The notes beneath the pieces were generated by a model, which saw only the letters and a program-made list of their open reading frames with translations, was not told where the DNA came from and searched no databases. Of a stretch of 64,000 nucleotides of DNA, positions 485 to 61,545 are shown in pieces. Every line of letters begins with the position of its first letter. The first letter of the stretch is position 1. Both the position numbers and the translations under genes were made by a program. The DNA is from a virus, in IMG/VR virus record IMGVR_UViG_3300003316_000080, positions 1 to 64,000 of that record, one strand, 5' to 3'.

Positions 485-880
485 TCAGGCGGCCCGCGCT
501 GCCTTGAACTCAGCCCACTGGCGCGCCCCCAAGAGGCGCGCAAACTGGGCTTCCGGGATTTGCGTCGCCTTGGCCATGGCGCGCTGCGCCATCGCGACGA
601 CGGCCATGGTGGATGCCTCTTCCTTGCCGAAGCGCTCCTGGTAGTCGCCGACGATCTCCTGAAGAGCAAACAGCAGGTTCGGGGCGGCGGACATGGCGAG
701 GCCGATGGCCACGTTGTCGTGATCGGGGCCGCAGAAAGGGAGGGATGCGATGCAGCCAATGCCGTCCTCGACAATGACGGAGGGAAGCATGTGGACGAGG
801 CCGGTTGCCTCGTCACGGTGTTCCATGGCCGGCACGAAAGACCATTCGCGGCGCTCGCGGATTGGGGTGAAGCTGCTCAT
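485..880 (-). CDS. hypothetical protein (131 aa)
   Basis: ORF track 485..1120; ATG at 878-880 (MSSFTPIRE...) with GGAG upstream; lies just downstream of leftward promoter. Confidence 0.5.
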   Translation of the reverse strand: MSSFTPIRERREWSFVPAMEHRDEATGLVHMLPSVIVEDGIGCIASLPFCGPDHDNVAIGLAMSAAPNLLFALQEIVGDYQERFGKEEASTMAVVAMAQRAMAKATQIPEAQFARLLGARQWAEFKAARAA

Positions 881-905
881 GTCGTCTGCTCCGTCTGAAG
901 TTGAT

Positions 906-941
906 GGAGAGATTGTATATAAACTTCTTACTGGTCCGCAA
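906..941 (-). promoter_or_regulatory. sigma70-like leftward promoter (TTGCGG-N18-TACAAT) with embedded CCAGTAAGAAGTTT motif
   Basis: -10 TACAAT = revcomp of 912-917, -35 = revcomp of 936-941; same TATATACAATCTC element recurs at 28783 and 62654. Confidence 0.35.
921..934. repeat. CAGTAAA-palindrome motif copy (CCAGTAAGAAGTTT, minus orientation)
   Basis: inside leftward promoter spacer. Confidence 0.5.
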
Positions 942-1132
942 GCACTTTTCGCGGTGTCTTCAGCACGTGGCGCGGTGTGTTGCGTAGCTGATGGCGGGGA
1001 CGCGTCTGTGCGCCACCGAACACAAGAGGCTCTGTACCCGTCTTGCTGGGTGTGTTCACAGCCAGCCCCTTCCCAGGAACCACGCTGTACTTGAACGGCC
1101 ACGGTGTGGCACGTAGCCACACGCCGTTCTTC

Positions 1133-1840: not shown

Positions 1841-1867
1841 AAGTGCCTCAGTATCGATTTGTGGGCG

Positions 1868-2371: not shown

Positions 2372-2481
2372 GGGGTGCTCCTTCTTCATAGATGAAATGG
2401 CACGAGGATTATATATGAACTCGTTTGCGCTCTGTATATAGGCGCACGGCTACACTGCCGCCTTCCCACAGGAGAACTCAC
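2372..2481. promoter_or_regulatory. divergent intergenic region with AT-rich boxes (ATTATATATGAA, TGTATATAGG)
   Basis: 110-bp gap between leftward gene ending 2371 and rightward gene starting 2482; TATAAT readable on minus strand. Confidence 0.3.
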
Positions 2482-20322: not shown

Positions 20323-20323
20323 T

Positions 20324-20515
20324 ATGCAAGACTCTCGGCGCCGAATGCCCTCATACATCAAGCCTCACATCTTCCTTCACCACAACGGCTTTTGGTACGT
20401 GACGAAGTGCCGCACGCCATTTCGGAGGCGCACGGATTCACAAGTGAAGATGTGGGACGCTGCTTATCGTGCCGTGATGGCTTTGAACGCCGGCAGAAAG
20501 ATCCCACGAGAATGA
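20324..20515 (+). CDS. hypothetical protein (63 aa)
   Basis: ATG 20324; stop overlaps sbcC start. Confidence 0.3.
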   Translation: MQDSRRRMPSYIKPHIFLHHNGFWYVTKCRTPFRRRTDSQVKMWDAAYRAVMALNAGRKIPRE

Positions 20516-22479
20516 TCCCGCTGTCCATCACCATCAAGGATTGGGGCCCGTTCGTGGGCTCCCACACCTTCAAGTTCTCTGAGGCACCGGGCCTCTATTT
20601 CCTGTGGGGAGAGAACCGCGCAGAACCGCGCCTAGGCTCCAACGGCGCCGGCAAATCTCGCCTGTGGCAGGCGCTCACGTGGGTCTTTCATGGCAAGGAT
20701 CTCGACGGCAAGAAGGCTGGTGACGTCGCGAACTGGAAGGTGGGTAAAGGCGCCTCCGTCGAGTTCTGCTACAGCATGGGTGGTGAGCAGTGGGTGATCG
20801 TCCGCCGCTGGTCGCCGAACGCATGGGAACTGCTGAGCGAGCACGGAGAGGTGTTTGACCTAGCAAAGGACAACACCAATTTGGCGCTGGTTCACGTCAA
20901 GTTGTCCTTTACGGCTTGGAAGCAGACCGTCATGCTCGGACAGGACCAAGACCTGTTCCTGGATCTCGGCGCTGAGCAGAAGGCAGCACTCTTCGCCGAG
21001 TTGATGAACCTCGATCATTGGCTGGATCTGGCCGCCAAGGCGTCGAAGAAGTCGACGGAAGAGGATGGACGGGCCCGCACGCTAGAAGCGCACATGGGTC
21101 GCTTGGAAGGGCAGTTGCAGCAACTGGATAACGACACGGGCGCGGAAGCCTCGCGTATCTGGGAGGAAGACCGCCAGAAGCGCCTGGGCGTCTACACACA
21201 CGAGTTCGAGGCTGGAGCAACACGCCAAGCAAAGATGAAGGACGGTCTGAAGGCTGTGGAGGCCCAGGCAAATGAAATGCGCGAGCGGGCACGCAAGGCG
21301 CGTGAGCAGGAAGACAGCATTAGGCTCATGTACACGGAGTTGGACAAGACAGAGCCTGATGCGCGAGCAGAGGTGACTTTGCTTCAGTCACAGCTGGATG
21401 CGCTGATCAAGCACGAAGCAATGCTGGATGAGATGGACGACTGCCCAACGTGTGGTCAGACGATCGACACCAAGCACAAGCGCAAGGAACAAGAGGCCGT
21501 GTCCAAACAGGTCTTCGCCCTTGATCGTGATTTGGCAGCGGCCAAGCGCCACCACTCTGACGTCAAGGCCAAGGCGCGCGAATGGGAAGACGCCTTTAAC
21601 AAGGCAGTAGAGGAAACAGAGAAGCTAACTCAGCGCGTGCGTGAGCTTGAGCAGGACATCAAGGACCGCACACGCTCGATCACACTGATGGATCGGGACC
21701 TGGACGATATCGAGATGCGCGTAGAGCGTCTGGAAGCACAGACGAACCCTCACGCTGCCGCAGACACCAAGCGTGCTGAAGAGCGTGAGCGTTTGACAGA
21801 AGCTGTACGAGCGACAAGGCGCCACCTCGACCAAGCCTCGAACCGCGCTGCGTACTTCAGCTACTGGGCACGCTGGTGCAAAGACATCCGCCTGATGTTG
21901 ATCTCTGAGGCGCTGGCCCAGCTGGAGATCGAGGTCAATAACGAGTTGCACGCGGCCGGCCTCGATGAGGGGTGGGCCCTGCAGTTTGCTGTGGATCGCG
22001 AGACGAACGCCGGCACGGTGAAGCGCGGGTTCAACGTGCTTGTGCTATCGCCACACAACGATCGTGCAGTGCCCTGGGAGATGTGGTCAGGTGGAGAGGC
22101 TCAGCGACTGCGTGTTGCAACTCAATGCGGCCTTGCCAACCTCGCCCGGGCACAGACAGGGGCATCCATCAACCTAGAGGTGTGGGATGAACCCACCAAC
22201 GGGCTGTCGGAACAGGGCATCAACGATTTACTGACGATGCTCGCGCGTCGGGCAGAAGACGAGCAACGTGCGATCTGGGTTATCGACCATCGATCGCACA
22301 GCTTCGGCGGTTTCGCCGGATCGTCTGGCGTGATCAAGACAGACGCCAGTTCTTCGTTTGACCAGACCGGTCTGTATAACGGAGGGGGCAATGTCGAAGT
22401 ACATGAACAGCCCGTATCTGAGGCAAGCAATCGTGCGGCACATGATGTCCGCCGAATCGGACGCAAGGAACTCACATGA
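20512..22479 (+). CDS. sbcC: SbcC/Rad50-type ATPase
   Basis: Walker A GSNGAGKS, long coiled coil with CPTCGQ zinc hook, signature SGGEAQRL, Walker B LEVWDEPTNGL. Confidence 0.8.
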   Translation: MIPLSITIKDWGPFVGSHTFKFSEAPGLYFLWGENRAEPRLGSNGAGKSRLWQALTWVFHGKDLDGKKAGDVANWKVGKGASVEFCYSMGGEQWVIVRRWSPNAWELLSEHGEVFDLAKDNTNLALVHVKLSFTAWKQTVMLGQDQDLFLDLGAEQKAALFAELMNLDHWLDLAAKASKKSTEEDGRARTLEAHMGRLEGQLQQLDNDTGAEASRIWEEDRQKRLGVYTHEFEAGATRQAKMKDGLKAVEAQANEMRERARKAREQEDSIRLMYTELDKTEPDARAEVTLLQSQLDALIKHEAMLDEMDDCPTCGQTIDTKHKRKEQEAVSKQVFALDRDLAAAKRHHSDVKAKAREWEDAFNKAVEETEKLTQRVRELEQDIKDRTRSITLMDRDLDDIEMRVERLEAQTNPHAAADTKRAEERERLTEAVRATRRHLDQASNRAAYFSYWARWCKDIRLMLISEALAQLEIEVNNELHAAGLDEGWALQFAVDRETNAGTVKRGFNVLVLSPHNDRAVPWEMWSGGEAQRLRVATQCGLANLARAQTGASINLEVWDEPTNGLSEQGINDLLTMLARRAEDEQRAIWVIDHRSHSFGGFAGSSGVIKTDASSSFDQTGLYNGGGNVEVHEQPVSEASNRAAHDVRRIGRKELT

Positions 22480-23191: not shown

Positions 23192-24133
23192 ATGACTGTC
23201 TATTACAACGAGTTCAATCTGCACGCAGCCAAGTGGATTAGCAATCTGATCAAGGCAGGTTTGATAGCACCCGGGATTGTCGACACAAGGAGCATTGAGG
23301 ATGTCAGACCGCGAGACTTGCGAGGGTTCAAGCAGTGTCATTTCTTCGCCGGAGTGGGCGTGTGGAGCTATGCACTCCGACAAGCGGGATGGGCAGATGA
23401 CAGAGAGGTCTGGACAGGTAGTTGCCCCTGCCAACCTTTCAGCTCGGCAGGCGCAAAAGCTGGGTTTGATGACGAGCGGCACTTGTGGCCCCACTTCCAC
23501 TGGCTCATCGGCGAGTGCCGACCTACAGTCATTTATGGAGAGCAGGTTGCAAGCAAGAACGCGGACCCTTGGATCGACCTTGTATGTTCTGACCTGGAAG
23601 CCTTGGGTTACGCCTTCGGGGCGGTCCCGTTTGCGTCAGCGGGCGTCGGCGCCCCGCACGCGCGAGAGCGTACGTACTGGATGGCCCACACCAACAACAA
23701 GGGACTGGAAGGACGGCAAGGGTTGCGACAACGTACCGGCGAACGCGCTGCTGGGGCGTGTGGTGTGGCTGGCCGGTTGGGCAACGCCGACTACGTTGCA
23801 CAACAAGCGGACGGAGGCTTTCGCGGCGGGCCGCACTCCGACGCCTTCGGAAGTGCTGCCGACCTGCCAGCCGGCCCGACTAACGGCTACTGGAAAACTG
23901 CTGACTGGCTCTTCTGCCGGGATGAGCAGTGGAGGCCCGTTGAACCCGGCACATTCCCGTTGGCTGATGGCGCTGTTGCCAGAATGGGACGCGTGCGCGC
24001 CTATGGAAACGCTATCAATGCTGAGCAAGCCCGAATCTTTATTGAAGTGGGCATGGAAGCCTTGCACGCCCAGACACAAGCTGAGAACACCTCGGCATCA
24101 ACTGCGCGGAAGCAACTGAGAGGCCCTACGTGA
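23192..24133 (+). CDS. DNA (cytosine-5) methyltransferase
   Basis: motif I FFAGVGVWS, motif IV GSCPCQPFSSAG, motif X AYGNAINAEQARI. Confidence 0.7.
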   Translation: MTVYYNEFNLHAAKWISNLIKAGLIAPGIVDTRSIEDVRPRDLRGFKQCHFFAGVGVWSYALRQAGWADDREVWTGSCPCQPFSSAGAKAGFDDERHLWPHFHWLIGECRPTVIYGEQVASKNADPWIDLVCSDLEALGYAFGAVPFASAGVGAPHARERTYWMAHTNNKGLEGRQGLRQRTGERAAGACGVAGRLGNADYVAQQADGGFRGGPHSDAFGSAADLPAGPTNGYWKTADWLFCRDEQWRPVEPGTFPLADGAVARMGRVRAYGNAINAEQARIFIEVGMEALHAQTQAENTSASTARKQLRGPT

Positions 24134-24363
24134 AGATCACTGACGTGTCCAACAAGAAGACAGTGGTGTGTGGCTTCACATGCTGGCATTGCCGCCGCGT
24201 GGTGTTATCTGGTGGCGCCGCTGAAGTCGTCGAGATCTCGATCAAGTTGCGGCCGGGCGCTGACAGACGTGAGCGTGCAAACCGCCTGAGAATGGCCCGT
24301 GCTGAACTGCGCCATGCCCTTGCTATATTCCGCGCCAACAAAGAACTTGAGGACCTCGCATGA
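24130..24363 (+). CDS. hypothetical small Cys-containing protein
   Basis: GTG start overlapping upstream stop; VVCGFTCWHC. Confidence 0.35.
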   Translation: MKITDVSNKKTVVCGFTCWHCRRVVLSGGAAEVVEISIKLRPGADRRERANRLRMARAELRHALAIFRANKELEDLA

Positions 24364-26852
24364 GTGTGCGTTGTGTTGACTGCCTTGTGGGCCTGCGCCA
24401 GCTTCCAGATGCATCCGTTGATGCCATCGTCACGGATCCGCCCTACGGCCTGAGCGAGCAGAAGCCAGCGGAACTCGCTGCTTGCATCGCTGCATGGCTG
24501 GCCGGCGAGGTCTACCAGCCGAAGGGCAAGGGCTTCATGGGCAAGTCCTGGGACGCCTGGGTGCCTGGGCCCGAAGTCTGGCGCGAGTGCTTCCGCGTTC
24601 TCAAGCCGGGCGGACACATCCTGGCCTTCGCCGGCACGCGCACGCAGCACTTGATGGCGCTGTCGATGGCCCTGGCTGGATTCGAAATCAGGGACATGAT
24701 CGCCTGGGTGTATGGCTCCGGGTTTCCGAAGTCGCTGGACGTGTCGAAGGCGGTCGACAAGGCAGGCGGAGCCTCGCCCGTCGAGCAGGCTGAACTGCTG
24801 CGCCGCAAGCGCGTGGCGGCCGGCCTGACGCGAGAGCAGGTCGCGGAACACTGCGGGTGCACTCCATCGAGCGTTCGAGACTGGGAAGAAGGCCGAGCGC
24901 GCGCCGTCGGTGCCGCCGTTGAGTTCATCGTCCCGAGCGACGAGTACCGCACCAAGCTGGCCGACTTGCTCGGTTACAGCGTGGACGAGCGCAAGCTGAT
25001 TGGAACCTCGGCTGACCGGCGCGGCGATGGCACCGTCTACGGGGTGGGCCACAGCGGAGAGTTGCGCGCTGGCGGCAACACCGACGCTGCCCGCCAGTGG
25101 GAAGGCTGGGGCACCGCCCTGAAGCCGGCCCTTGAAACGGTTACTTTCGCTTCAAAGCCGTATACCGAAGAGCAGGAACGGAGTATAATTCAATCGAACC
25201 TAATTCGATTGGAGGCCCGTTTATGGTTGCTGTCGTCTGCGAGTGCTGCGGAAAAGAGTTCAACGTCAAGCCAAAGCGAGTACGGCGCGGCGTGCGCTAT
25301 TGCTCAATGGAGTGCCGACGAAATCACCAGTACACGGGCCGCTTTGTGCGGTCAGATGGATACGTCGCTGTTCGAGTGGGCAGCGACTACCAGCTTGAGC
25401 ATCGTGTCGTCATGGAGGCGCACATTGGTCGAAAGCTGGAGCGATGGGAGCACGTCCACCACCGAAACGAAGTCAAACACGACAACCGACTCGAGAACCT
25501 TGAAATTCTCACTGTCGCAGATCACGCCGAGCACCATCATCAAGGCCTGCAGCCTTCCCGGTGGGTTCAATGCGAATGCCTCCACTGCGGAAAGCCACTT
25601 CAACGCCTCGCTGTTGTTGTTGCAAAGCATCCGCACACTTTCTGCGACCGAGCCTGCTATATCGCAGGCGCAGCACGAACACCTGGGCGCGGGCGTAAAG
25701 CCGAACCTTGATCCATGCATCATGGCGCGCAAGCCGCTGGTCGGAACGGTCGCGGCCAACGTTCTGGAGCACGGGACGGGGGCGCTGAATATCGACGGGT
25801 GCCGCGTGGGCGATGAGGAGCGGGTGAACGGCGCCGGATCTGTGACCTCGCTTCAGCGTCAATCACGGGTCGCGGCGGGATACCGCGATGATGCTGGCGT
25901 TGGCCCAGGCTCTGACGCGAAGACCGTTGTTGGCCGTTGGCCCGCCAACCTGATCCACGACGGCAGCGACGAGGTGCTGGCGGCGTTCCCGAACGCGCCT
26001 GGTCAACTCGCGACGGCGAGCACCAGCGACACGCAGCGCTCCGGACAGAACACCTACGGTGCGATGACCCGTGGCAGCACGGGACAAGAACCGCGCGACG
26101 AGCTCGACAAGAGCGCCGCCCGATTTTTCAAGGAGTGTGCATGGGACGAACCTCGATCTGTTGCGAGCACTGCCGCGCAGCCTTTGTGCCTGCAAAACCA
26201 AGTCGCCGATTCTGTTCAGAGCGCTGCAGCAACTTGGGCCAGCCTCGCGGGAATACTCTCAAACGATTCGAAGGAACGTTCTATGAACGTAACTCCGATC
26301 GAGTCAAGAGCGATCGCAGAAACCGTTATCACTGCGACGACGAGTATCGCAAGCGGGTTCTCGCTCGAGTCGCAGCACGAAAGGCTCACCCCGTGCCGCA
26401 GCCTTGTGAAGACTGTGGTGCGCCGAACGCCGATCGGCATCACGACGATTACGACAAGCCTCTCTCGATCCGATGGAAGTGCCGGAGCTGCCACGTTCAC
26501 CATCACGCCGACGAGCTTGGATCGTGGGGATCTGGGCTCGCGGTTTGAGTACTGCGCCAAGGCTAGCAAGAAGGATCGCGGCGAGGGTAACAACCACCCT
26601 ACTGTCAAGCCGACCGCGCTGATGCGGTATCTCGTCCGCCTTGTTACCCCTCCGGGTGGCACTGTACTTGATCCTTACACGGGCTCTGGTTCAACAGGAG
26701 TGGCCGCGCAAGCGGAAGGCTTCAAGTTCATCGGATTTGAGAATGACCCTGCTTCTTGTGCGATTGCAAACAGGCGAATGGGACTCACGGGCCTGCTTGC
26801 TGTGAACAAAGAGCGCCGCCAGCTGCGTCTTCGCAAGCAGTTGATTGAGTGA
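24360..26852 (+). CDS. N6-adenine/N4-cytosine DNA methyltransferase (DPPY...FxGxG order), interrupted by two HNH cassettes; 830-aa open frame
   Basis: N-terminal AIVTDPPYG, VLKPGG; C-terminal HPTVKPTALMRYLVRLVTPPGGTVLDPYTGSGSTG; intervening frame is S/T-rich. Confidence 0.65.
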   Translation: MSVRCVDCLVGLRQLPDASVDAIVTDPPYGLSEQKPAELAACIAAWLAGEVYQPKGKGFMGKSWDAWVPGPEVWRECFRVLKPGGHILAFAGTRTQHLMALSMALAGFEIRDMIAWVYGSGFPKSLDVSKAVDKAGGASPVEQAELLRRKRVAAGLTREQVAEHCGCTPSSVRDWEEGRARAVGAAVEFIVPSDEYRTKLADLLGYSVDERKLIGTSADRRGDGTVYGVGHSGELRAGGNTDAARQWEGWGTALKPALETVTFASKPYTEEQERSIIQSNLIRLEARLWLLSSASAAEKSSTSSQSEYGAACAIAQWSADEITSTRAALCGQMDTSLFEWAATTSLSIVSSWRRTLVESWSDGSTSTTETKSNTTTDSRTLKFSLSQITPSTIIKACSLPGGFNANASTAESHFNASLLLLQSIRTLSATEPAISQAQHEHLGAGVKPNLDPCIMARKPLVGTVAANVLEHGTGALNIDGCRVGDEERVNGAGSVTSLQRQSRVAAGYRDDAGVGPGSDAKTVVGRWPANLIHDGSDEVLAAFPNAPGQLATASTSDTQRSGQNTYGAMTRGSTGQEPRDELDKSAARFFKECAWDEPRSVASTAAQPLCLQNQVADSVQSAAATWASLAGILSNDSKERSMNVTPIESRAIAETVITATTSIASGFSLESQHERLTPCRSLVKTVVRRTPIGITTITTSLSRSDGSAGAATFTITPTSLDRGDLGSRFEYCAKASKKDRGEGNNHPTVKPTALMRYLVRLVTPPGGTVLDPYTGSGSTGVAAQAEGFKFIGFENDPASCAIANRRMGLTGLLAVNKERRQLRLRKQLIE
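25137..25712 (+). mobile_element. 576-bp HNH endonuclease cassette inserted in MTase, flanked by ~42-bp imperfect direct repeats
   Basis: flanks 25119-25160 and 25695-25736 (AAGCCGGCCCTTGAA vs AAGCCGAACCTTGAT); AT-rich leader with TATAAT 25184-25189 and hairpin 25191-25211. Confidence 0.6.
25223..25711 (+). CDS. HNH homing endonuclease (HNH_3-like)
   Basis: ATG 25223 with GGAGG SD; DGYVAVRVG...YQLEHRVVMEAH...HHRNEVKHDNRLENLEILT; different frame from MTase. Confidence 0.8.
   Translation: MVAVVCECCGKEFNVKPKRVRRGVRYCSMECRRNHQYTGRFVRSDGYVAVRVGSDYQLEHRVVMEAHIGRKLERWEHVHHRNEVKHDNRLENLEILTVADHAEHHHQGLQPSRWVQCECLHCGKPLQRLAVVVAKHPHTFCDRACYIAGAARTPGRGRKAEP
26130..26548 (+). mobile_element. second HNH endonuclease cassette inserted in MTase
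   Basis: flanked by degenerate copies of MTase RFF(Y)CAKAS segment (SAARFFKECAW upstream, GSRFEYCAKAS downstream). Confidence 0.5.
26141..26548 (+). CDS. HNH endonuclease (small, zinc-ribbon N-terminus)
   Basis: ATG 26141 with AAGGAG 5 nt upstream; CEDCGAPNADRHHDDYDKPLSIRWKCRSCHVHHH. Confidence 0.7.
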   Translation: MGRTSICCEHCRAAFVPAKPSRRFCSERCSNLGQPRGNTLKRFEGTFYERNSDRVKSDRRNRYHCDDEYRKRVLARVAARKAHPVPQPCEDCGAPNADRHHDDYDKPLSIRWKCRSCHVHHHADELGSWGSGLAV

Positions 26853-26964
26853 CACAATGAACACTCTTTCGTGACCTCTCGATGGAACAGATCAACCGAC
26901 CGGAAAGGATGGGTAGGCGCATGCGTTGAAGCGAACAGGACACGCCCACGTGGGCATTTAGGCA

Positions 26965-26995
26965 AAAGGCCCCTGACTCAACATCAGGGGCCTTT
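26965..26995. terminator. bidirectional rho-independent terminator between convergent genes
   Basis: 12-bp stem AAAGGCCCCTGA / TCAGGGGCCTTT, 7-nt loop, A-run before and T-run after. Confidence 0.6.
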
Positions 26996-27020
26996 ATGCT
27001 TTCGAGCGGAGGGGAGGGTG

Positions 27021-27443
27021 TCAGAACGTGACACCCATGCGCTTCAATTTCACCTTGATCTCATCCACCGTGTGGATCACCTCGGGTCGAGAGAACAAAC
27101 CCCAGCGATCTTTGTGCACCATGCACGACACGTCGTCGACGATCAGTGACGCATTGGCAACGAGGGCAAACGGCAGGTCCATCACCTTGGTGTTGGTTGC
27201 GAAGGCTGCTGTCTGTCCGTTGAGGCAGAACAGCAACCGTGTGAGTTGTGGTTGCTCAGAGCGACGCTTGCGCTCGTCCACATCACGCTTGACCGCGCGC
27301 AGCAGATGGTGGACGACGGCCACAGCACGGCGCTGATCAGGTGTGCTCTGGCGAGCCACCATACAGTCAAGCTCATGCACCCACCACTGGCCCTCTTGGA
27401 AGTCCTCCAGTGGACTTGTCCCGTCACACTTGTCATTGCTCAT
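27021..27443 (-). CDS. hypothetical protein (140 aa)
   Basis: ATG 27441-27443 with AAGGAG upstream; ends at terminator. Confidence 0.5.
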   Translation of the reverse strand: MSNDKCDGTSPLEDFQEGQWWVHELDCMVARQSTPDQRRAVAVVHHLLRAVKRDVDERKRRSEQPQLTRLLFCLNGQTAAFATNTKVMDLPFALVANASLIVDDVSCMVHKDRWGLFSRPEVIHTVDEIKVKLKRMGVTF

Positions 27444-27633
27444 CGCTTTTCTCCTTTGATGCTGCGAAGCTCTTGGTGTCCGCAGGAATGTCGTCCATGA
27501 GTGGACCCAGACCGAATGCGTCTGCTATCACCCGAGTGAATGGCTGAACCGGGCAGTGCACGTACCAGTGACCGCGCTGGCCGCAAGTGACGCACTCGCG
27601 CTCCGGGTTGAGTTGTTGTGGATCAGCTGGCAT
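27433..27633 (-). CDS. small CCHC zinc-knuckle protein (66 aa)
   Basis: ATG 27631-27633 with GGAGG 6 nt upstream; CVTCGQRGHWYVHC = C-x2-C-x4-H-x4-C. Confidence 0.45.
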   Translation of the reverse strand: MPADPQQLNPERECVTCGQRGHWYVHCPVQPFTRVIADAFGLGPLMDDIPADTKSFAASKEKSDEQ

Positions 27634-27772
27634 TGGTGCCTCCGATGAAGTCCGCTGGATCAGGCCGGCGCTCGTCGAACTCACGGCCGTCGCGGGCGGC
27701 TGCGAACATGCGCGCGTACCATGACTCCAGCGCTGCTCGATAGCGCATCAGCGCGCGGAACTCGGCGCTCAC
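27623..27772 (-). CDS. small hypothetical protein (49 aa)
   Basis: GTG start with GGGAGG SD; overlaps both neighbours. Confidence 0.3.
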   Translation of the reverse strand: MSAEFRALMRYRAALESWYARMFAAARDGREFDERRPDPADFIGGTNAS

Positions 27773-27891
27773 GATCCGCCTCCCTGGGACAGCGCGGCAC
27801 TATCGGTTTCAGCCATGTAGCGATGCGCTGCGGATTGCGCTTTCAAGCGTTCGATCAGCGCTTCCAGCGCCTGGGTGCGTGAGGTGGTCAT
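27769..27891 (-). CDS. small hypothetical protein (40 aa)
   Basis: ATG 27889-27891 with AAGGA SD; overlaps downstream GTG. Confidence 0.3.
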   Translation of the reverse strand: MTTSRTQALEALIERLKAQSAAHRYMAETDSAALSQGGGS

Positions 27892-27940
27892 GGGTGTCCT
27901 TGGTGCGGGAATGTGGAATGTGGATAGGACTTAAGCCGTG

Positions 27941-28228
27941 TCAGGCGGGTCGAACAGCGTCAGGTGACACCGTGGCGAAGCGGCTCCGAGGGCTTTTGTA
28001 GTAGTCCATTTCAACGCGAAGTTGAATGCTGGCAGTCGTGCCGCTGCCAAAGTTCCAAGTGTGTACGGTGCAGCCCCAGATAGTGGCCGGTGACGGATTG
28101 ACTTGGCGGCTGCTGAGTAGCACCCCGACACGTGTTCCAACTGGATAGAGGTCTGCGGCCAGGGCGAGTGCGTCGTCATGGGCTTTACCAACGGCGCCCA
28201 GTAGTTGGTTCAGGGCCTTTTCGTTCAT
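27941..28228 (-). CDS. hypothetical protein (95 aa)
   Basis: ORF track; ATG 28226-28228 with AAGGAG SD. Confidence 0.5.
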   Translation of the reverse strand: MNEKALNQLLGAVGKAHDDALALAADLYPVGTRVGVLLSSRQVNPSPATIWGCTVHTWNFGSGTTASIQLRVEMDYYKSPRSRFATVSPDAVRPA

Positions 28229-28425
28229 GTCAGTTCTCCTTCACGATAGATTGCTTCAGTTGGGGATACTTTTCCTCCAAGTCGTCCAGCTGCTCGCGGG
28301 CGTGTTCACGTGTTTTCTCAAACACGGAGGTGAGCATGCTGGTCCATAGTGCATGACGCCGGCACGCCGACTCCCACATGCGCTGGTCGAAGGATTGGGC
28401 GAAGTCTTTGGGCACGGTGGTCCTG

Positions 28426-28752
28426 TCAGCGCGCTCTGATGCGCACCAGTATTCCCAAGCCACTGCCGCAGTACGTTGCGTGCACGCGGCATGCCTCTTC
28501 CAACGAGGCGCATTGCTGCAGGCGCGACCACGGGTGAAACCTGGACACACGCACTTGGACCTCCCAAGGAAACTGAAAGATGTGTTGCCGCTTGCGTTCA
28601 GCTTCACGATGCAATCGCTCCACAGCCTCAGTGGAGGATGGAAACCAGTCCTCCCACGAGGTGGGCTTGTGTGACGTGCCCCATGCACCAGAGATCAGTG
28701 TCTGGATGTCCGCCAGGATTTGGTCACGCGATTTTTCGTCCCAGGTGGTCAT
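28426..28752 (-). CDS. hypothetical protein (109 aa), first gene of leftward operon
   Basis: ATG 28750-28752 about 30 nt downstream of leftward -10. Confidence 0.45.
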   Translation of the reverse strand: MTTWDEKSRDQILADIQTLISGAWGTSHKPTSWEDWFPSSTEAVERLHREAERKRQHIFQFPWEVQVRVSRFHPWSRLQQCASLEEACRVHATYCGSGLGILVRIRAR

Positions 28753-28776
28753 GTCTTGTTTCAGTGCGCTGTAGAT

Positions 28777-28848
28777 GTGGAGATTGTATATAAACTTCAA
28801 GCCAGAACGCAAGCACTTTCTTAGAAACTTTTTACTGCCCTCTACAAT
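28777..28848. promoter_or_regulatory. divergent promoter/operator region
   Basis: leftward TTGCGT-N18-TACAAT (-10 revcomp of 28783-28788, -35 revcomp of 28807-28812); CAGTAAA motif 28824-28838; rightward TACAAT 28843-28848. Confidence 0.4.
28824..28838. repeat. CAGTAAA-palindrome motif copy (GCAGTAAAAAGTTTC, minus orientation)
   Basis: between divergent promoters. Confidence 0.5.
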
Positions 28849-29008
28849 GAGCCACCTGACCTGCTGCGCGTGGCGGTCTGGGGTGGAAGGTGATCCAGCA
28901 TCAGGCTGGTGACTACAGGGGCGCCAGCTTCTAACGAACTTCCACGCTCACGTGTGCCCGGCGGTGGGTTGCCGTCGGGCTCTTTTACACAGAATCGTTG
29001 GGGGTTGT

Positions 29009-29422
29009 ATGCACCACATCAAGGGGAACTTGTACGCGGCGCGTCTCAACGAACGAGGCGACGTCCGCTTGGTCAAACTGACCAGTCAGGCGGGTACGCG
29101 GGAGGTGGACTTTGACAAGCCCCTGCCTCCGCAGATCGTCGCGGTAGACACCATCCTAGACGCTGGCACATTCGCGGCCTTGGTAGTTGCTGTCAGCGCC
29201 CGTGGTGATGATTACAAACATACGCACTACCATCAGGTTCTTGCGAACCACCAGAAGCCGCAGTCAGCCGCTAGGCGCTACCTTGATGCCATCGTGTCGG
29301 CGTATAACGTAGCGGGTGAGTACGCTAAGGCGCGCGCAGTGGAGAGCATGGGAGAAGGTGATCTGCACCGTGCGATCGACATGCTGCTTGCTGACTATGT
29401 GAACCGCCAGGAGTCAACATGA
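29009..29422 (+). CDS. hypothetical protein
   Basis: ORF track; ATG 29009. Confidence 0.45.
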   Translation: MHHIKGNLYAARLNERGDVRLVKLTSQAGTREVDFDKPLPPQIVAVDTILDAGTFAALVVAVSARGDDYKHTHYHQVLANHQKPQSAARRYLDAIVSAYNVAGEYAKARAVESMGEGDLHRAIDMLLADYVNRQEST

Positions 29423-30983: not shown

Positions 30984-31403
30984 ATGGACGAAAAACGCAA
31001 ACGTGGTCGGCCGGCTGGAGCAATGAACAAGCTCAGTCAGGAGGCTGTCAACCTCGCAAAGCAGACAGGTAAGTTGCCCCATGAGATCTTGCTAGAGATC
31101 GCACGGGGCAATCCCATTTGTGTGCTGAGTATGGAAGAAGGCGTTCTGAAGCCTGTCTATGTCATGACAGATCCTGCACAGGTGCTTGATGCAGCAAAGG
31201 CAGCAGCACCGTACTTCGCGCCGAAGATTTCTACAGTTGAAGTGATTGCAGGGGTATCTGACCATGAACTTGATCGCATCATTGCGCTCGCTGCCGCCGA
31301 AGCAGGCATTAGCCTTGGCGCTAGCGGAGAAGGCGAAGAGACAGAGGAAGAGGAACCAACTGAGCGAAGCAGCCGAAAGGGCCGTAGACAGCTACGCGAG
31401 TGA
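30984..31403 (+). CDS. putative terminase small subunit
   Basis: position directly upstream of terL; N-terminal basic KRKRGRPAG; 3' end overlaps terL by ~158 nt, so true end uncertain. Confidence 0.4.
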   Translation: MDEKRKRGRPAGAMNKLSQEAVNLAKQTGKLPHEILLEIARGNPICVLSMEEGVLKPVYVMTDPAQVLDAAKAAAPYFAPKISTVEVIAGVSDHELDRIIALAAAEAGISLGASGEGEETEEEEPTERSSRKGRRQLRE

Positions 31404-33111
31404 AGCAGAGGGGCCTCCTGTCCCTCTGCAGGTTTCCTCAGTCGTACTAGACGACACGCACGTAATCAGCCAACTGCTTACAACAGGCAAGTTGTGTGCG
31501 GGTCCGTCTGCACAGCACATCCGCTACAAGATCTACTGGGGCGGTCGTGGTGCTGTGAAGTCGTGGGGCATGGCAGAAGCACTAGTACGTCTGGCAGCTG
31601 CCAAGCCTCTACGCATACTGTGCTGCCGTGAGTTTCAGAACTCGATCAAGGACAGTGCACACAAACTGCTGAAAGACACGATCGAGAGACTTGGTCTGTC
31701 TACGTGGTTCACTGTCACTGCCGACAGCATCAAGTCTCGTGTCGGTGCAGAGTTCATGTTCAAAGGCCTGCACAACAACGAGAACGGCATCAGGTCGACT
31801 GAAGGCGTAGATATCTGCTGGGTGGAAGAAGCACACAGCGTTACTGCACTTAGCTGGCAGAGCCTACTGCCCACGATCCGTGGTGACGAGTCAGAGATCT
31901 GGATCTCGTTCAACATGGTCGAAGAGAGTGATGCTACGTACCAGATGTTCGTAGCAAATGAACGCCCTCACTCGATCGTTCACCACATCAATTACGACAG
32001 CAATCCGTTCCTACCGAAAGTGCTCCGTGATGAAATGGAGCACGACAAGAAGACGGACTACGCGCTGTACGAGCACATCTGGCTGGGCAAGCCTCGCAAG
32101 CGTAGTAACGCAATCGTCCTCAACGGCAAGTACCGCATTGAGGAATTCCCAGATGATCTGTACGAACACGCAGATAGGTTGTTCTTCGGTGCTGACTGGG
32201 GCTATGCAGAAGATCCGTCCACGCTGGTGCGTTGCTTCATCCTGAACAACAAGCTGTACATCGAGTACGAGGCATACGGCAAGCACATCGAACTGAACGA
32301 CTACGCTGCGTTCTATGACCAAGTGCCCGGGTCACGTGACTGGCCTATCTATGCCGACAGCGCGTTGCCAGCAACGATCTCGCATGTGCGCGGTCTGGGC
32401 TTTGCGATCGATGCGGCAGAGAAGTGGCCGGGCAGTGTCGAAGACGGCATCAAGCATCTGCGGGGGTACGACGAGATCATCATTCACCCGCGCTGCAAGA
32501 TGGCGGCCGACGAGGCTTACAAGTGGCGGTACAAGGTCGACAAGAAGGTGCTGGATGCCAACATGCAGCCACTCGTACTGCCCACGCTGGTAGACGCACA
32601 CAATCACTGCATTCCGGCTGGCGTGCTTGTGTCTACTGCGTGTGGCGATGTGCCTATTGAGCAAGTACAAGTAGGCGACCTCGTGTGGACGCGTGTTGGT
32701 CTGCGTCCTGTGTTGTGGGCAGGTGCCACAGACACGAACCGTGAAGTGCTGGAGATCACGTTGTCATCTGGTCATGTAGTGCGCTGCACTCCTGACCACG
32801 AAGTCTTCGTGAATGGTGAGTTCATTCGTGCAGACGCTGCTCAGGTGTCTGACAACATGAACACACTCGACAGCACGGCACATGGCAGGCGAATTGGCAC
32901 TGCGTCTGTAGTCTCTATCACTCGCATCGCGGAAAAGGCTGATGTTGTCTATGACGTAACGGTCGATGGACAACACGAGTTCTTCGCGAATGGTGTGCTG
33001 GTTCACAACTGCTGGGACGCGGTCCGGTACGCCCTACATGGCTACATCCCCAGATCGGGTGAGATGGGCGTGTGGAACAGACTAGGCGCCCAAGCTCTGG
33101 GACAATCCTGA
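31246..33111 (+). CDS. terL: terminase large subunit carrying a 134-aa mini-intein
   Basis: Walker A GGRGAVKSWG, Walker B DICWVEEAH; intein between DAHNH and CWDAV; exact start uncertain. Confidence 0.8.
   Translation: MQGYLTMNLIASLRSLPPKQALALALAEKAKRQRKRNQLSEAAERAVDSYASEAEGPPVPLQVSSVVLDDTHVISQLLTTGKLCAGPSAQHIRYKIYWGGRGAVKSWGMAEALVRLAAAKPLRILCCREFQNSIKDSAHKLLKDTIERLGLSTWFTVTADSIKSRVGAEFMFKGLHNNENGIRSTEGVDICWVEEAHSVTALSWQSLLPTIRGDESEIWISFNMVEESDATYQMFVANERPHSIVHHINYDSNPFLPKVLRDEMEHDKKTDYALYEHIWLGKPRKRSNAIVLNGKYRIEEFPDDLYEHADRLFFGADWGYAEDPSTLVRCFILNNKLYIEYEAYGKHIELNDYAAFYDQVPGSRDWPIYADSALPATISHVRGLGFAIDAAEKWPGSVEDGIKHLRGYDEIIIHPRCKMAADEAYKWRYKVDKKVLDANMQPLVLPTLVDAHNHCIPAGVLVSTACGDVPIEQVQVGDLVWTRVGLRPVLWAGATDTNREVLEITLSSGHVVRCTPDHEVFVNGEFIRADAAQVSDNMNTLDSTAHGRRIGTASVVSITRIAEKADVVYDVTVDGQHEFFANGVLVHNCWDAVRYALHGYIPRSGEMGVWNRLGAQALGQS
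32608..33009 (+). mobile_element. mini-intein (Hint domain, no endonuclease domain) within terL
   Basis: starts with Cys (CIPAGVLV), block B TPDH, ends VYDVTVDGQHEFFANGVLVHN followed by +1 Cys; 402 nt in frame. Confidence 0.8.
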
Positions 33112-33136: not shown

Positions 33137-35374
33137 ATGCCACGTGTCTTGACACCATCGCCTCTCACCGCCGAACTGCGTGCGGCAGGGTTTCCATGGG
33201 CAGATGATTCCGGTGTACTGCGCGCTGCCGATGGCACTGTCATCAGTAGCGGTGGGGGTGCGTCGACCTTCACTGCGCTGACGGATAGTGCGAGTGCAGA
33301 CATTCCTGCCACCAATGCACCGACAGCAGCAGCACTCGCTCTGAAGGCTAGTCTGGTGAATGGCGGTGTACCGACATCGCAACTGCCGCGATCCACTGCA
33401 GCCGTGACGCTCTCTGCAACGACGAGTGCAACTCCCACAGACGGCACCTTTGCTGCGCTGCCGGCGCAGGCGTGTACGGAACTGGAGGTATTCAACGACA
33501 GCCAAGTGCCCGTCGAGTACCGCCGTAATGGCGCCGGCAACGTCGTCACACTCCTGGCGAATCAGCGTCGCCGCATCCTCGGCATCACCGACGCCAGCCA
33601 GATCGCATTCCGGCGCTCTGACTACGCAGTGGCCGGCCGGACGCAGCCGACGACGATCTCTGTCCGTGCTCGCACGAACACGGACACGTACACGCTTGCC
33701 GGCACGCTGTCGATGGTGCTCAGTGGTGGTTCGTACACGGCGTTTAGCAGCCTCGCGTGTACGTCCATGGAGATCTTCAACAACTGCAACCACGACATCC
33801 TCTTCACGATCGACAGCGGCACGGCGTACAAGCTGCGTCACGGTGAGTCGGCTGTGATTCTGGGCATCGCCAACGCCAACCAAGTGCGTGTCAAGACCTA
33901 TGATTCGATCGCTCGTCAATCTCGCAATCTCGAGGCCGAGTGCTGGACGGTAGGTCTGGGTCGGGAGACGCTGAGTCCGTACCGTGCAGACGCCATCACG
34001 GCTGAAGCCGACATTCTCAACGGCGAGCCCAACTATCCGAACCTTCAGCCAATCGGCGCGGTCCTGACGCTGGGCAACCTGCGTCCTGTGCCGCGTCTGC
34101 GCAAGAAGCCGGTGGAGTTGGCGAAGTGGGATCTGGCGGCCAATGTGGTCACCAACCGTGCGGCTGACTTCGCTGACATCACACCGGCCGCTGTGGGCAA
34201 GGACGAGATTACCTTCGGCACCACGATCGTCGAGTACACGCAGTCTCAGACGGCGGAAGTACTGATCGCTCCTGCTGGTGTGCAGTCCACACCGGTCGAC
34301 GTCTCCAATGGCTCGATCCACTTCACGCATGTGTGGCCGGACAACGCCGGCAACAACTACGGCGTGAACGGGCCTTCCAGCTTCATCATCGAACTGCACA
34401 GCGCGGGCTCGCCGTCAGCGCCCACGGCCAACTACCACACCAGTGGCGTACTGAACTCGCTGAATGCGGGCTTCATGGGCGCGTCCACGCTGGGCTATAA
34501 CCTGCAGCGCTGCTTCTCTCTGCCGATCAACGCATTCACTGCGGCTGGCACGGGTGCTACGCTGACGGCGATCACCTGGGCCCGCATTCGCATCACGGGC
34601 CCGTCGGCGTCCAACGGCTGCAAGTTGCGCCCTGTCCGCCTCGACTTCGTGCCCAACGCGTTGACGAAGGGGACGGTGATCTTCACCTTCGACGACCTGC
34701 ACGCGGGCGCCTGGACCAACGCGCTGCCGATCATGTCGAAGTACTCGTACCCGGGCGTCCTGTGCATGGACACCACGGTCAAGATGGGCCAGTCAGGCTT
34801 CCTGACACCCGAGCAGATCATTCAGATGCACCAGACGTACGGCTGGGAGGTCGGCTATCAGGTCTATCAGAACGAAACGGGGTTCAACCTCAACTCCGAA
34901 TCCTGGATGCGCCAGGTCGGCAAGTGGGTGCTGGAGATGAACCGTCTGGGCATCCACGAGACGTACAACGGCTCGTACGGCTCGGGCACTGTGACGAACG
35001 TCGACGAAGAACGGCTGATGGCTGCTCGCCGTGCACTGTCGACGATGCGTCGCTTCACCAGTGGCACGAACACGTCCCCGCCCTTCAAGAACCCGGAGAC
35101 GGTGCCCTACGGCGACCCGTACAACCTGCGGTGCCTCAACATGAGCAGTGGCTTCACGGCCGGCACGATCTACGATCGCTGGAAGGATCACGTCGATCAG
35201 GCCGTTGCTGCAAAGGGCGTGGCGATCTTCGCGTGTCACAGTGAATTCAACGGCGCCGGTGAAGCGCTGACGGCACTCGGTACGCTCTGCGCGTACATCC
35301 GCACGCTGGAACTGGCCGGCAACTGCCAAGTGACCACCTTCGCCGGTCTGAACAAGCAGGCTTACGGGGTCTGA
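33137..35374 (+). CDS. large (745 aa) putative virion/host-interaction protein with beta-rich repeats and C-terminal polysaccharide-deacetylase-like region
   Basis: AAGGGGA SD; two internal repeats (ACTELEVFND..., ACTSMEIFNN...); C-terminal TFDDLHAG...PYG resembles NodB/CE4 motifs weakly. Confidence 0.5.
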   Translation: MPRVLTPSPLTAELRAAGFPWADDSGVLRAADGTVISSGGGASTFTALTDSASADIPATNAPTAAALALKASLVNGGVPTSQLPRSTAAVTLSATTSATPTDGTFAALPAQACTELEVFNDSQVPVEYRRNGAGNVVTLLANQRRRILGITDASQIAFRRSDYAVAGRTQPTTISVRARTNTDTYTLAGTLSMVLSGGSYTAFSSLACTSMEIFNNCNHDILFTIDSGTAYKLRHGESAVILGIANANQVRVKTYDSIARQSRNLEAECWTVGLGRETLSPYRADAITAEADILNGEPNYPNLQPIGAVLTLGNLRPVPRLRKKPVELAKWDLAANVVTNRAADFADITPAAVGKDEITFGTTIVEYTQSQTAEVLIAPAGVQSTPVDVSNGSIHFTHVWPDNAGNNYGVNGPSSFIIELHSAGSPSAPTANYHTSGVLNSLNAGFMGASTLGYNLQRCFSLPINAFTAAGTGATLTAITWARIRITGPSASNGCKLRPVRLDFVPNALTKGTVIFTFDDLHAGAWTNALPIMSKYSYPGVLCMDTTVKMGQSGFLTPEQIIQMHQTYGWEVGYQVYQNETGFNLNSESWMRQVGKWVLEMNRLGIHETYNGSYGSGTVTNVDEERLMAARRALSTMRRFTSGTNTSPPFKNPETVPYGDPYNLRCLNMSSGFTAGTIYDRWKDHVDQAVAAKGVAIFACHSEFNGAGEALTALGTLCAYIRTLELAGNCQVTTFAGLNKQAYGV

Positions 35375-61543: not shown

Positions 61544-61545
61544 GT

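Follow-up and report, generated by a model that had tools for sequence, protein, structure and literature searches.

An exchangeable cassette of small leftward genes between the methyltransferase and packaging genes of a phage

Extra genes present in one genome between conserved modules, each with its own promoter and terminator, were reportedly described as morons by Juhala and Hendrix in 2000 for lambdoid and HK97-type phages. In phage lambda, the exo-xis region (orf60a, orf63, orf61, ea22 and ea8.5) groups small non-essential genes expressed from an early promoter, and its products include the zinc-finger protein Ea8.5, the two-helix Orf63 and the modular Ea22 with a variable C-terminus (PMC7093339). 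The hyperplastic regions of T4-type phages contain clusters of non-essential ORFans between sigma70-like early promoters and stem-loop terminators, and recombination shuffles the genes of these PeSL cassettes between close relatives (PMC2839356, PMC4122927).

The locus studied here lies in a window of 64,000 nucleotides, which is the whole stretch of viral DNA that was analysed. Here, in a variable zone that separates the DNA-metabolism genes from the small-gene/packaging block, accessory genes form a cassette that is complete in itself and can be exchanged. We estimate at about three in four the probability that this leftward block is a cassette for early accessory genes at a hot spot of recombination, the inferred mechanism included; the "hot spot" reading draws on few genomes, the searched collections yielding only three to four relatives.

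Seven leftward ORFs and their products

The block consists of seven ORFs (g1 to g7) on the same strand, filling positions 27021-28752. Two independent gene callers agreed on this number; the sequence-only reading had rightly seen a run of small leftward genes but counted six. Its placement of a compact leftward block between the methyltransferase genes and the packaging side was also correct. The block is flanked by the genes of a C5 methyltransferase (23192-24133) and of an N6/N4 methyltransferase (24360-26852), the latter directly preceding it, and the packaging side comprises terS (30984), terL (31246) and the portal gene (38138). The orientation is indeed opposite to that of the neighbours, but further leftward genes are found at the ends of the window (485-2389 and 60929-63982). 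The GC content is 0.58-0.59 across 26-30 kb vs. about 0.59 for the genome, i.e. the composition is not atypical. No lysogeny genes were seen within the 64-kb window, in which no integrase, recombination or xis gene adjoins the block.

Codon-usage log-odds were above 0 for all seven ORFs and below 0 for every overlapping alternative. The dN/dS ratios of g2, g5, g6 and g7 (0.13-0.32) support the view that these four predicted ORFs are genes. A Shine-Dalgarno sequence (SD), attributed by the sequence-only reading to each ORF, is clear for five of them (g3 to g7), weak for g2 (AGGA) and lacking for g1. Similarly, in the series said to be translationally coupled, stop and start codons overlap or nearly abut at g2/g3 (1-nt gap), g4/g5 (4-nt overlap), g5/g6 and g6/g7 (11-nt overlaps each), and the gaps at g3/g4 and g1/g2 are of 49 nt and 10 nt.

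The promoter-proximal ORF, g1 (28426..28752, minus strand, as for all seven; 108 aa), is doubtful, being either a decaying gene or no gene. Its codon-usage score is positive in the N-terminal half only and poor in the C-terminal half, and no homologue was found in the genomes of the relatives or by tblastn against 50,697 phage records. The possibility that g1 and g2 form one frameshifted gene was rejected, the alternative 152-aa frame scoring negatively upstream of g2. This second gene (28230..28415; 61 aa, GTG start) has the best codon-usage score of the cassette and is the only one found in all three complete cassettes; it shares 77-85% identity with its homologues in the relatives L049 and L050 (dN/dS 0.13), and neither a family nor a PDB match was found for it.

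For g3 (27941..28228; 95 aa), an N-terminal helix followed by a Tudor/SH3-like beta-barrel is predicted. The model is confident and its five-stranded barrel can be superposed on Tudor, chromo or PWWP domains, with a sequence identity to these fold matches of only 10-19%. Found in this phage only, the gene has been inserted between g2 and the modular family to which g4 belongs. Matches of g3 to giant PKD-like repeat proteins were dismissed as motif-level only (W-x-F-G-x-G).

The 40-aa product of g4 (27769..27891, overlapping the start of g5) shows 88% identity, over residues 10-34, to an internal segment of proteins encoded by L047 and L048, two P22-like temperate contigs, and its N- and C-termini match the ends of the same proteins. 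By these alignments, g4 is a minimal derivative of a modular family of 354-459 aa, reduced to the N-terminal motif, one internal segment and the C-terminal SQGGGS tail. The next gene, g5 (27623..27772; 49 aa, GTG start; dN/dS 0.13), shows 90-92% identity (blastp/tblastn) to a 49-aa protein of the temperate contigs L046-L048, where it sits between YqaJ/RecT and AlpA/integrase.

The CCHC zinc knuckle reported for one product is present in g6 (27433..27633; 66 aa) with the C-x2-C-x4-H-x4-C pattern (CVTCGQRGHWYVHC), and this spacing is kept in the variants of L049 and L054 (CVTCGQRGHWYVHC, CITCGQRGHWYLHC and CITCGKCGHWYLHC; dN/dS 0.17). It resembles zf-CCHC knuckles of the retroviral nucleocapsid type by the exact spacing, by its Gly and aromatic residues and by its conservation in three variants. 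It differs by its score against Pfam zf-CCHC (PF00098; 12.3 bits, under the gathering cut-off of 20.8), the scores against the related models zf-CCHC_2 and zf-CCHC_3 being under their own cut-offs too, and by being a single knuckle in a 66-aa peptide of a bacterial virus. The best matches among PDB sequences, MoMuLV NCp10 and the TUT7 knuckle, are weak (E about 0.03). Judging from the motif, this knuckle probably binds nucleic acids.

The last gene, g7 (27021..27443; 140 aa, SD AGGAG), overlaps g6 by 11 nt and encodes two modules. It has 76% identity to the homologues of L049 and L054 (dN/dS 0.32) and only 4 matches among 5.8 billion clusters. The N-terminal module (DFQEGQWW..RAVAVVHHLLRA) also occurs in prophage proteins; in P0016, it lies within a run of small genes adjoining xis/int. 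The C-terminal 46 aa are common to L050, and the protein is a mosaic, with an N-terminal half at 91-95% identity to L049 and a C-terminal half nearer to L050. Its AF2 model is poor (pLDDT 51), too weak for a fold search.

No family of known function was found for g1 to g7 in Pfam, PHROGs, NCBIfam, PADLOC or PDB sequences, and neither the region nor the seven proteins matched the 50,697 phage records by megablast, blastn or tblastn, so that the sequence-only description of the small proteins as uncharacterised stands. The profile and structure searches that it had proposed gave no known family but did give the confident g3 model. Scans of IMG/VR with g7, g2 and r1 (the first gene of the rightward operon), and of metagenomes with g2 and r1, returned nothing. 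GTDB genomes scanned with g5 and with the junction linker A described below gave no match that would point to a host. The papers on DUF1643 and DUF6011, two families met in the cassettes of the relatives, assign no function to them.

Conserved ends, exchanged contents

We compared the block with those of two relatives of about 91% DNA identity with complete cassettes (L049 and L050) and of a fragment (L054). In all three, this position is occupied by a leftward cassette, whose gene set differs. Both flanks are 95-100% identical across relatives, and the homology stops about 7-12 nt downstream of the -10 element of the leftward promoter (P_L) on one side and at the terminator on the other. According to these alignments, the ends of the cassette (a predicted sigma70-type promoter and a predicted bidirectional hairpin terminator) are fixed in every relative, and the genes between them are replaced. 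Thus, g6 and g7 are present in two relatives (L049 and L054), g1, g3, g4 and g5 are in no relative's cassette and are unique to this phage, and the first gene after P_L differs in each of three related phages: the position of g1 is taken by an unrelated 163-aa gene in L049 and by an unrelated 324-aa DUF6011 gene in L050. Conservation in related phages, on which the sequence-only reading had made its proposal depend, was found for g2, g6 and g7, which are kept under purifying selection. The surroundings vary too: L049 has neither of the methyltransferases, and L050 has a split N6/N4 gene. Among the more distant relatives identified by their portal (about 50% identity, 44 loci), none possesses any of the cassette genes; the best portal match, Edwardsiella phage ZHS, has a different organisation.

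P_L (28779..28818, minus strand) reads AAAGTGC-TTGCGT(-35)-18 nt-TACAAT(-10), with an extended -10 element (GTTTATATACAAT), and is the right boundary of the cassette. The sigma70-like promoter announced at 28783-28812 was recovered there (TTGCGT-18-TACAAT at 28812..28783), with 8 of 12 consensus matches. This consensus match by itself is not above chance: a scan at 9/12 detected nothing at P_L, and sites were fewer genome-wide than in shuffled sequences. However, in the three relatives the -10 element of P_L is unchanged and the -35 element carries one change, and the 20-nt core of P_L recurs with one mismatch at 908-927 (0 expected, 100 shuffles). In this second copy (908..947, minus strand), the -35 element, the spacing and the extended -10 element align, and it stands about 27 nt upstream of an ATG at 880, at the same distance from its leftward gene as P_L from its own. 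Related extended -10 elements were found at 2420..2408 and 7310-7322. P_L is one of a small family of similar putative promoters in this genome.

Facing the other way, a rightward promoter-like site, P_R (28821-28848, plus strand), reads TTAGAA-16-TACAAT (TTGGAA in the relatives, 9/12). The back-to-back -10 elements that had been described are therefore two TACAAT hexamers in opposite orientation, about 55 bp apart and both unchanged in three relatives, with the -35 elements about 8 bp from each other. P_R is followed by a leader (28856..29008, plus strand) that precedes the ATG of r1 at 29009. The leader contains a terminator-like hairpin (28956-28980; -22.3 kcal/mol, z -3.3) with a T-run to 28990, which is among the best terminator-like sites of the region. 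Across three phages, about 28860-29040 shows a single difference (in the hairpin loop, in L049), and 28900-29099 is 99-100% identical vs. about 91% for the backbone.

At the left end, the bidirectional terminator predicted at 26965-26995 corresponds exactly to a hairpin with a 12-bp stem (AAAGGCCCCTGA/TCAGGGGCCTTT), which folds strongly on both strands (-27.3 kcal/mol, z -5.3 on the minus strand; -26.5 kcal/mol, z -4.9 on the plus strand). Transcription of the leftward cassette and of the rightward operon that converges on it would both end there. The window, L049, L050 and L054 have the same stem, and the loop is inverted in L054. Between the stop codon of the methyltransferase and the terminator, a non-coding spacer (26853..26964) is near-invariant in four relatives (95-100% vs. 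about 91% for the backbone), and it is retained even in L049, whose upstream gene differs. Over the whole window, Rfam gave no family at gathering score; a sub-threshold Thr-leader-like match was observed on the terminator hairpin.

Inside the block, two short sequences recur at gene junctions. Linker A (27767..27798, minus strand; GCCGCGCTGTCCCAGGGAGGCGGAnCrTGAG) encodes a ..ALSQGGG[AS] tail together with an SD and an overlapping start, and 26-31 nt of it recur unchanged between six different pairs of genes, in phages of two types, the genes to the left and right being unrelated; it was not found in IMG/VR. Linker B (27610..27649, minus strand; ..GGAGGCnCCA ATGCCAGCTGATCCnCAACAAC) encodes a ..NAS* tail and an MPADPQQ start, and is common to g5/g6, to the 49/138 pair of L046, to the DUF1643/66 pair of L049 and to the 66/66 pair of L054. 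Part of this conservation could come from the constraint on the SD and start codon instead of recombination. In the temperate contigs, the homologues of g4, g5 and the g7 N-module have xis/int on one side and YqaJ/RecT, or several small genes in a row, on the other: in L046 they follow the recombination genes, and in L046, L047 and L051 xis/int comes immediately after them.

From these observations, a mechanism can be proposed, for which we infer the promoter, the transcription start, the timing and the termination all from sequence. Early in the infection cycle, the host RNA polymerase would produce from the block a single short, leftward polycistronic mRNA, and the translation of g4 to g7 would be coupled by SDs located in the upstream C-terminal tails and by overlapping stop and start codons. 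Genes would be gained and lost through homologous recombination, both in the conserved flanks and in the 26-31-nt linkers between genes. Rearrangement shows in the 40-aa g4, in an out-of-frame fusion to the g7 tail in L050 and in the mosaic g7. As the same linkers occur in the early-left, exo-xis-like regions of temperate phages, g4, g5 and the g7 N-module have probably come from there. The products would be individually dispensable small binders, such as the CCHC knuckle of g6 and the Tudor/SH3-like barrel of g3, and, by their sequence alone, g2 and g5 are taken for short helical peptides. These products most likely tune host physiology or phage development and are not virion or replication components.

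Alternative readings of the block

The block may be an anti-defence or host-takeover island, whose small early proteins would act against the restriction, CRISPR, abortive-infection or transcription systems of the host and whose turnover would reflect an arms race. We regard this as possible but tentative. It fits the hypervariable content among phages about 91% identical, the vicinity of two orphan DNA methyltransferases that are themselves variable, the early-type promoter common to other leftward units, and the folds of g6 and g3, which are typical of nucleic-acid or protein binders. However, searches of Pfam, PHROGs and NCBIfam matched no known anti-defence protein and no HTH Aca-like regulator; PADLOC was also empty, though it covers defence proteins only. 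Moreover, the temperate homologues sit in an exo-xis-like position, and the characterised lambda genes of that position affect lysis/lysogeny and host survival, not defence (PMC7093339). A further proposal, which we hold to be unlikely, is that a plug-in slot with standard 26-31-nt linkers (SD and overlapping start) lets the lytic and temperate phages of a single, poorly sampled host clade swap genes for small effectors; at least g6 and g3 would then represent novel effector classes, which bind the nucleic acid or the RNA polymerase of the host for takeover or counter-defence.

Alternatively, the block would be the decaying relic of a temperate exo-xis-type module, captured once and drifting without function. 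The reduction of proteins of 354-459 aa to the 40-aa g4, the out-of-frame fusion to the g7 tail in L050, the state of g1 (no SD, poor C-terminal codon usage) and the absence from the window of adjoining integrase, recombination and xis genes all point this way. This is nevertheless quite improbable, given the dN/dS of 0.13-0.32 for g2, g5, g6 and g7, the retained SDs and overlapping starts, the intact and conserved promoter and terminator, and the different yet intact ORF set of each relative.

The sequence-only reading had described a switch-like architecture, in which a regulator encoded by the cassette would act at operators between divergent promoters and choose between leftward and rightward (late) transcription. 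The promoters are back to back, with their -35 elements about 8 bp apart, and the extreme conservation of the rightward leader, together with its terminator-like hairpin, suggests that the rightward operon is probably regulated. A switch is, however, very unlikely. No HTH, repressor or other DNA-binding family was found in g1 to g7 or r1 by searches of Pfam, PHROGs and NCBIfam. The control region holds no palindromic or repeated operator, its only inverted pairs being two weak ones of 9 nt, 68-96 nt apart, and the CAGTAAA motif, said to be palindromic, is a single copy (28831-28837, minus strand) that is not palindromic. Furthermore, the promoter-proximal gene is unrelated in three phages that share the same control region, while a cis/trans pair would be expected to co-vary. 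In all likelihood, the leftward block is an ordinary, rapidly reshuffled accessory cassette and no switch. Finally, the idea that the ORFs are chance open frames in non-coding, GC-rich DNA, which the many long spurious ORFs of the window at 59% GC and the family searches without match might suggest, has a negligible probability, and is effectively refuted already for g2, g3, g5, g6 and g7, in view of the codon-usage scores, dN/dS far below 1, the SDs and overlapping starts, the independent agreement of the gene callers, protein-level homologues elsewhere for these five and the confidently modelled g3 fold.

Read as an exchangeable accessory cassette, the locus marks where this phage lineage holds disposable, fast-changing genes, and it is usually in slots of this kind that genes for countering defence or manipulating the host come to light. 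With its conserved promoter, terminator and linkers, the cassette offers defined points at which it could be removed or exchanged. It also illustrates, clearly and on a small scale, a flow of genes between a phage that seems to be lytic and temperate phages, in the exo-xis-type regions of the latter. It leaves the present view of how phage genomes are organised unchanged.

Comparison with described loci

The lambda exo-xis region is a published analogue, being a series of small early genes with a zinc-finger protein among the products, and it resembles the cassette through the homologues of g4, g5 and the g7 N-module, which occupy the equivalent position in temperate L046-L048 and L051. The block differs in lying between methyltransferase and packaging genes, not by exo, xis or int, and in bearing a putative promoter and terminator of its own. 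No sequence homology links g1 to g7 detectably with the lambda genes: Pfam, PHROGs and NCBIfam gave none to orf60a, orf63, orf61, ea22 or ea8.5, and tblastn found no match to g1-g7 in the 50,697 phage records, among which lambda is presumed, unchecked, to be included. Unlike Ea8.5, a homeodomain/zinc-finger hybrid, g6 appears to be a retroviral-type CCHC peptide.

As in loci that associate acr and aca genes, small and fast-evolving early genes occupy a variable locus under a strong promoter, here a predicted one; in contrast, searches of Pfam, PHROGs and NCBIfam found neither an HTH gene of the Aca kind nor a homologue of any known inhibitor. Compared with a CI/Cro-type switch, there is no DNA-binding regulator by the divergent promoters, no repeated palindromic operators and no conserved first gene.

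The block resembles the T4-type PeSL cassettes by its conserved ends around a variable content; its promoter motif recurs in the genome, and a predicted terminator stem-loop bounds the far end. The phage is unrelated to T4; no composite unit of promoter and stem-loop is repeated between its genes, and the internal shuffling points would be coding junction linkers with an SD and an overlapping start. Compared with morons, the nucleotide composition is not atypical for the genome, and the locus is a replaceable slot for several genes vs. a single insertion. Like a moron, however, the cassette is replaced at one position between conserved neighbours (L049, L050, L054) and has, at the sequence level, its own putative promoter and terminator (P_L conserved and repeated; hairpin z -5.3). 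The cassette is another example of an already known type of locus.

Seven small leftward ORFs

The + strand of the window (about 59% GC) carries convincing genes from about 2.4 kb to about 60.9 kb, with the exception of one leftward cassette, located between an N6/N4 methylase gene (stop at 26852) and small rightward genes preceding terS. Genes for replication and repair (5'-3' exonuclease, DnaB, SNF2, PolA and Mre11/Rad50-like proteins) were identified in the window, along with C5 and N6/N4 DNA methyltransferases, terS, terL with an intein, portal, tailspike and lysozyme. The cassette consists, in transcription order on the - strand, of g1 (28426-28752, 108 aa), g2 (28230-28415, 61 aa, GTG start), g3 (27941-28228, 95 aa), g4 (27769-27891, 40 aa), g5 (27623-27772, 49 aa, GTG start), g6 (27433-27633, 66 aa) and g7 (27021-27443, 140 aa). 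Gaps of 10, 1 and 49 nt separate g1/g2, g2/g3 and g3/g4, while g4/g5 overlap by 4 nt and g5/g6 and g6/g7 by 11 nt each. We infer that these genes are translationally coupled. The sequence-only reading had described six coupled leftward ORFs, each with a Shine-Dalgarno (SD) sequence; the leftward block stands, but there are seven ORFs, and the SD sequence is clear for g3 to g7, weak for g2 (AGGA) and lacking for g1.

The same seven ORFs were called by two independent gene callers in public copies of the window DNA. Codon-usage log-odds, modelled on the window's long genes, were positive for g1 to g7 and negative for all overlapping alternative frames, g1 being positive in its N-terminal half only. 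Comparisons with homologues gave dN/dS values of 0.13 (g2), 0.13 (g5), 0.17 (g6) and 0.32 (g7), i.e. purifying selection. From 1.84 billion representative proteins, g3 retrieved 8 matches at E<=0.001, five of them small homologues, and its AlphaFold model is confident (pLDDT 90.5). Given this codon usage, these dN/dS values and what was found for g3 (homologues and model), we conclude that g2, g3, g5, g6 and g7 are real genes. The status of g1 as a gene is doubtful. Over residues 2-28 (28672-28749, -), it bears a weak resemblance to part of the interior of major capsid proteins (PF09950, E 0.042; phrog_264, E 0.009; tblastn matches of 24-27 aa in L017, L036 and L037); this capsid-like N-terminus is either a chance resemblance or a captured gene fragment.

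None of the seven proteins has an above-threshold match in Pfam, PHROGs, NCBIfam or PADLOC, nor any match to PDB sequences or to 50,697 phage records. The zinc-knuckle peptide announced from the sequence was found in g6, as an exact CCHC motif kept in the g6 variants; its matches to the knuckles of retroviral nucleocapsid and of TUT7 fall below threshold. The predicted model of g7 is poor.

Conserved ends and variable content

Three to four relatives were found across all the collections searched. Two sister-phage contigs (L049 and L050; backbone DNA identity of about 91%) were reached via the protein of r1, the first rightward gene across the control region (ATG at 29009), and a fourth fragment, L054, via g7. 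All three carry a leftward cassette in the same position, with the same promoter region and terminator as the window and with a differing gene set. In transcription order, these encode proteins of 163, 61, 459, 83, 164 (DUF1643), 66 and 141 aa in L049, of 324 (DUF6011), 73, 61 and 148 aa in L050, and, after the truncated end of L054, of 66, 66, 66 and 141 aa. The only gene present in all three complete cassettes is g2 (77-85% identity); g6 and g7 are also found in L049 and L054, and g1, g3, g4 and g5 are specific to the window among the compared cassettes. The best-supported reading is that the locus is an exchangeable accessory-gene cassette. A role in anti-defence or host takeover is plausible for it, in view of its hypervariable content, of the adjoining methylases, which are also variable, and of binder-like folds.

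At the downstream end, the hairpin of the predicted bidirectional terminator was recovered at 26965-26995: it folds strongly whichever strand is read (-27.3 kcal/mol, z -5.3; -26.5 kcal/mol, z -4.9) and is flanked on both sides by A/U tracts, as expected for a terminator common to the cassette and the convergent methylase operon. Identity over 26853-26999 reaches 95-100%, above that of the backbone. The 110-nt non-coding spacer upstream of the terminator (26853-26964) hardly varies among four relatives, one of which has a different upstream gene; it may act as a recombination flank or represent a 3'UTR-derived RNA.

At the other end, the back-to-back -10 elements and the leftward sigma70-like promoter were both recovered. 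The leftward site, P_L (TTGCGT-18-TACAAT, 28812..28783), has 8 of 12 consensus matches, which is under the scan threshold, and sigma70 consensus sites are not enriched in the window compared with shuffles. P_L is a credible promoter because both hexamers sit in the sole AT-rich gap between the divergent genes, three relatives keep its -10 element unchanged and its motif recurs at 908-947. A copy of its 20-nt core with one mismatch lies at 908-927 (0 expected from 100 shuffles). The wider motif AAAGTGCTTGCG-N9-GAAGTTTATATACAATCTC can be aligned there too (947..908, -), upstream of another leftward gene and as far from it as P_L is from the cassette. This copy implies that the true start of ORF 485..1120 is the ATG at 880. 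With related extended -10 elements at 2420..2408 (-) and 7310-7322 (+; site 7294-7322), P_L and its copy would define a small promoter family, the extended -10 of the motif copies being GTTnATATAyAAT. The opposite-facing site, P_R (28821-28848, +), reads TTAGAA-16-TACAAT, with TTGGAA in the relatives. Homology to the relatives ends 7-12 nt downstream of the P_L -10, about where transcription should start.

The switch-like architecture proposed earlier is not supported, as there is no regulator, no operator-like palindrome was found in the control region (CAGTAAA, thought to be palindromic, occurs there once and is not), and the first gene varies whereas the control DNA is conserved.

The untranslated rightward leader from P_R to r1 (28856-29008, +) shows one difference among three phages over about 28860-29040 (in the hairpin loop, in L049), and identity over 28900-29099 is 99-100% vs. 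about 91% for the backbone. A hairpin (28956-28980) followed by a T-run, among the best terminator-like hairpins of the region, lies just 5' of the r1 SD and ATG. No Rfam match was obtained for the leader. These features suggest that the head of the operon leading to terS and terL holds an attenuator or a target of antitermination, or yields a terminated RNA of about 130 nt. Alternatively, the high identity might result from recent recombination, since the tract runs about 90 nt into r1.

Other loci in the window

In the N6/N4 methyltransferase ORF (24360-26852, +; 830 aa), methylase halves at the two ends enclose a low-complexity middle, and the N-terminal part includes an HTH. Two alternative-frame ORFs lie in this middle (25223-25711 and 25937-26548), one encoding an HNH_3 endonuclease (E 3e-9), the other being Cys/His-rich and without a significant Pfam match. 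A NUMOD3 ORF divides the L050 methyltransferase gene into parts of 385 and 177 aa, and L049 has neither methyltransferase. It looks as though a variable methylase gene had been invaded by homing endonucleases; Rfam detected no group I intron. The intein of terL (31246-33111, +; Hint and Intein_splicing domains, residues ~455-588) is also present in L050 and absent from the L049 terminase (481 aa). Between terL and portal, a 745-aa protein (33137-35374, +), 97% conserved in L049, is replaced in L050 by a largely unrelated 510-aa protein; this is a second variable slot, within the structural region. In addition, we observed a PolA whose N-terminus bears a uracil-DNA-glycosylase-family domain (11641-14274, +) and a Mre11/Rad50-like pair (19013-22479, +) whose 695-aa ATPase also matches Lamassu LmuB models (PADLOC). 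The leftward block at the right end encodes a DnaJ-domain protein (60929-61543, -).

Modules and junctions shared with temperate phages

A 49-aa protein encoded in P22-like temperate contigs (L046-L048) shares 90-92% identity with g5. In L046, this g5 homologue lies downstream of YqaJ and RecT genes; it is followed by an AlpA-like gene and an integrase in L046 and L047, L048 stopping short of that point. The gene upstream encodes a modular protein of 354-429 aa, whose N-terminus, internal 25-aa segment (88% identical) and C-terminal tail make up the whole of g4, a 40-aa derivative. The modular family (148-459 aa; L046-L048, L049 7672-9051 and L050 7857-8303) has interchangeable modules linked by repeated Ala/Pro-rich peptides (SSAAPSAAEPV, AAPPAPQAASEPVA, GLSGDAEREALT and ALHSTGKPD). 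All members start with MT..ITQALEAL, and the C-terminus is ALSQGGGA in L046-L048 and ALSQGGGS in g4. Modules of the relatives' large proteins match many PHROGs without assigned function at differing positions, as is typical of domain-shuffled proteins. The N-terminal module of g7 is present in other proteins, one of them within a small-gene run directly before xis/integrase.

Moreover, identical sequences of 26-31 nt link unrelated genes. The linker GC(C/T)GCGCTGTCCCAGGGAGGCGGAnCrTGAG, which combines a ..SQGGG[AS] tail, a GGGAGG SD and an overlapping start, was found at six different gene pairs in two phage types, and the ..NAS*/MPADPQQ and CTGAC-ATGACC..CAGGCGCTGGAAGCGCTGA junctions behave in the same way. 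With g3 inserted between g2 and the modular family (directly adjacent in L049 and L050), an out-of-frame fusion to the g7 tail in L050, the mosaic g7 and a terminator loop exactly inverted in L054 (995-1160; stem and flanks unaltered), these linkers point to frequent recombination at the cassette flanks and junction linkers. In the best-supported reading, a fixed early sigma70-type promoter would drive the exchangeable cassette and a fixed bidirectional terminator would end its transcript, while the interior would be renewed through homologous recombination with exo-xis-type early regions of temperate phages infecting the same host clade.

The position of these temperate homologues corresponds to that of the lambda exo-xis region, whose small early genes, including those for zinc-finger, two-helix and modular variable-C-terminus proteins, affect lysis/lysogeny and host survival (PMC7093339). 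The lambda exo-xis genes, the T4-type hyperplastic regions (PMC2839356) and morons are the nearest known systems. Since the cassette lacks one or more of the features that define every one of them, we classify it as working like these systems without being a member of any.
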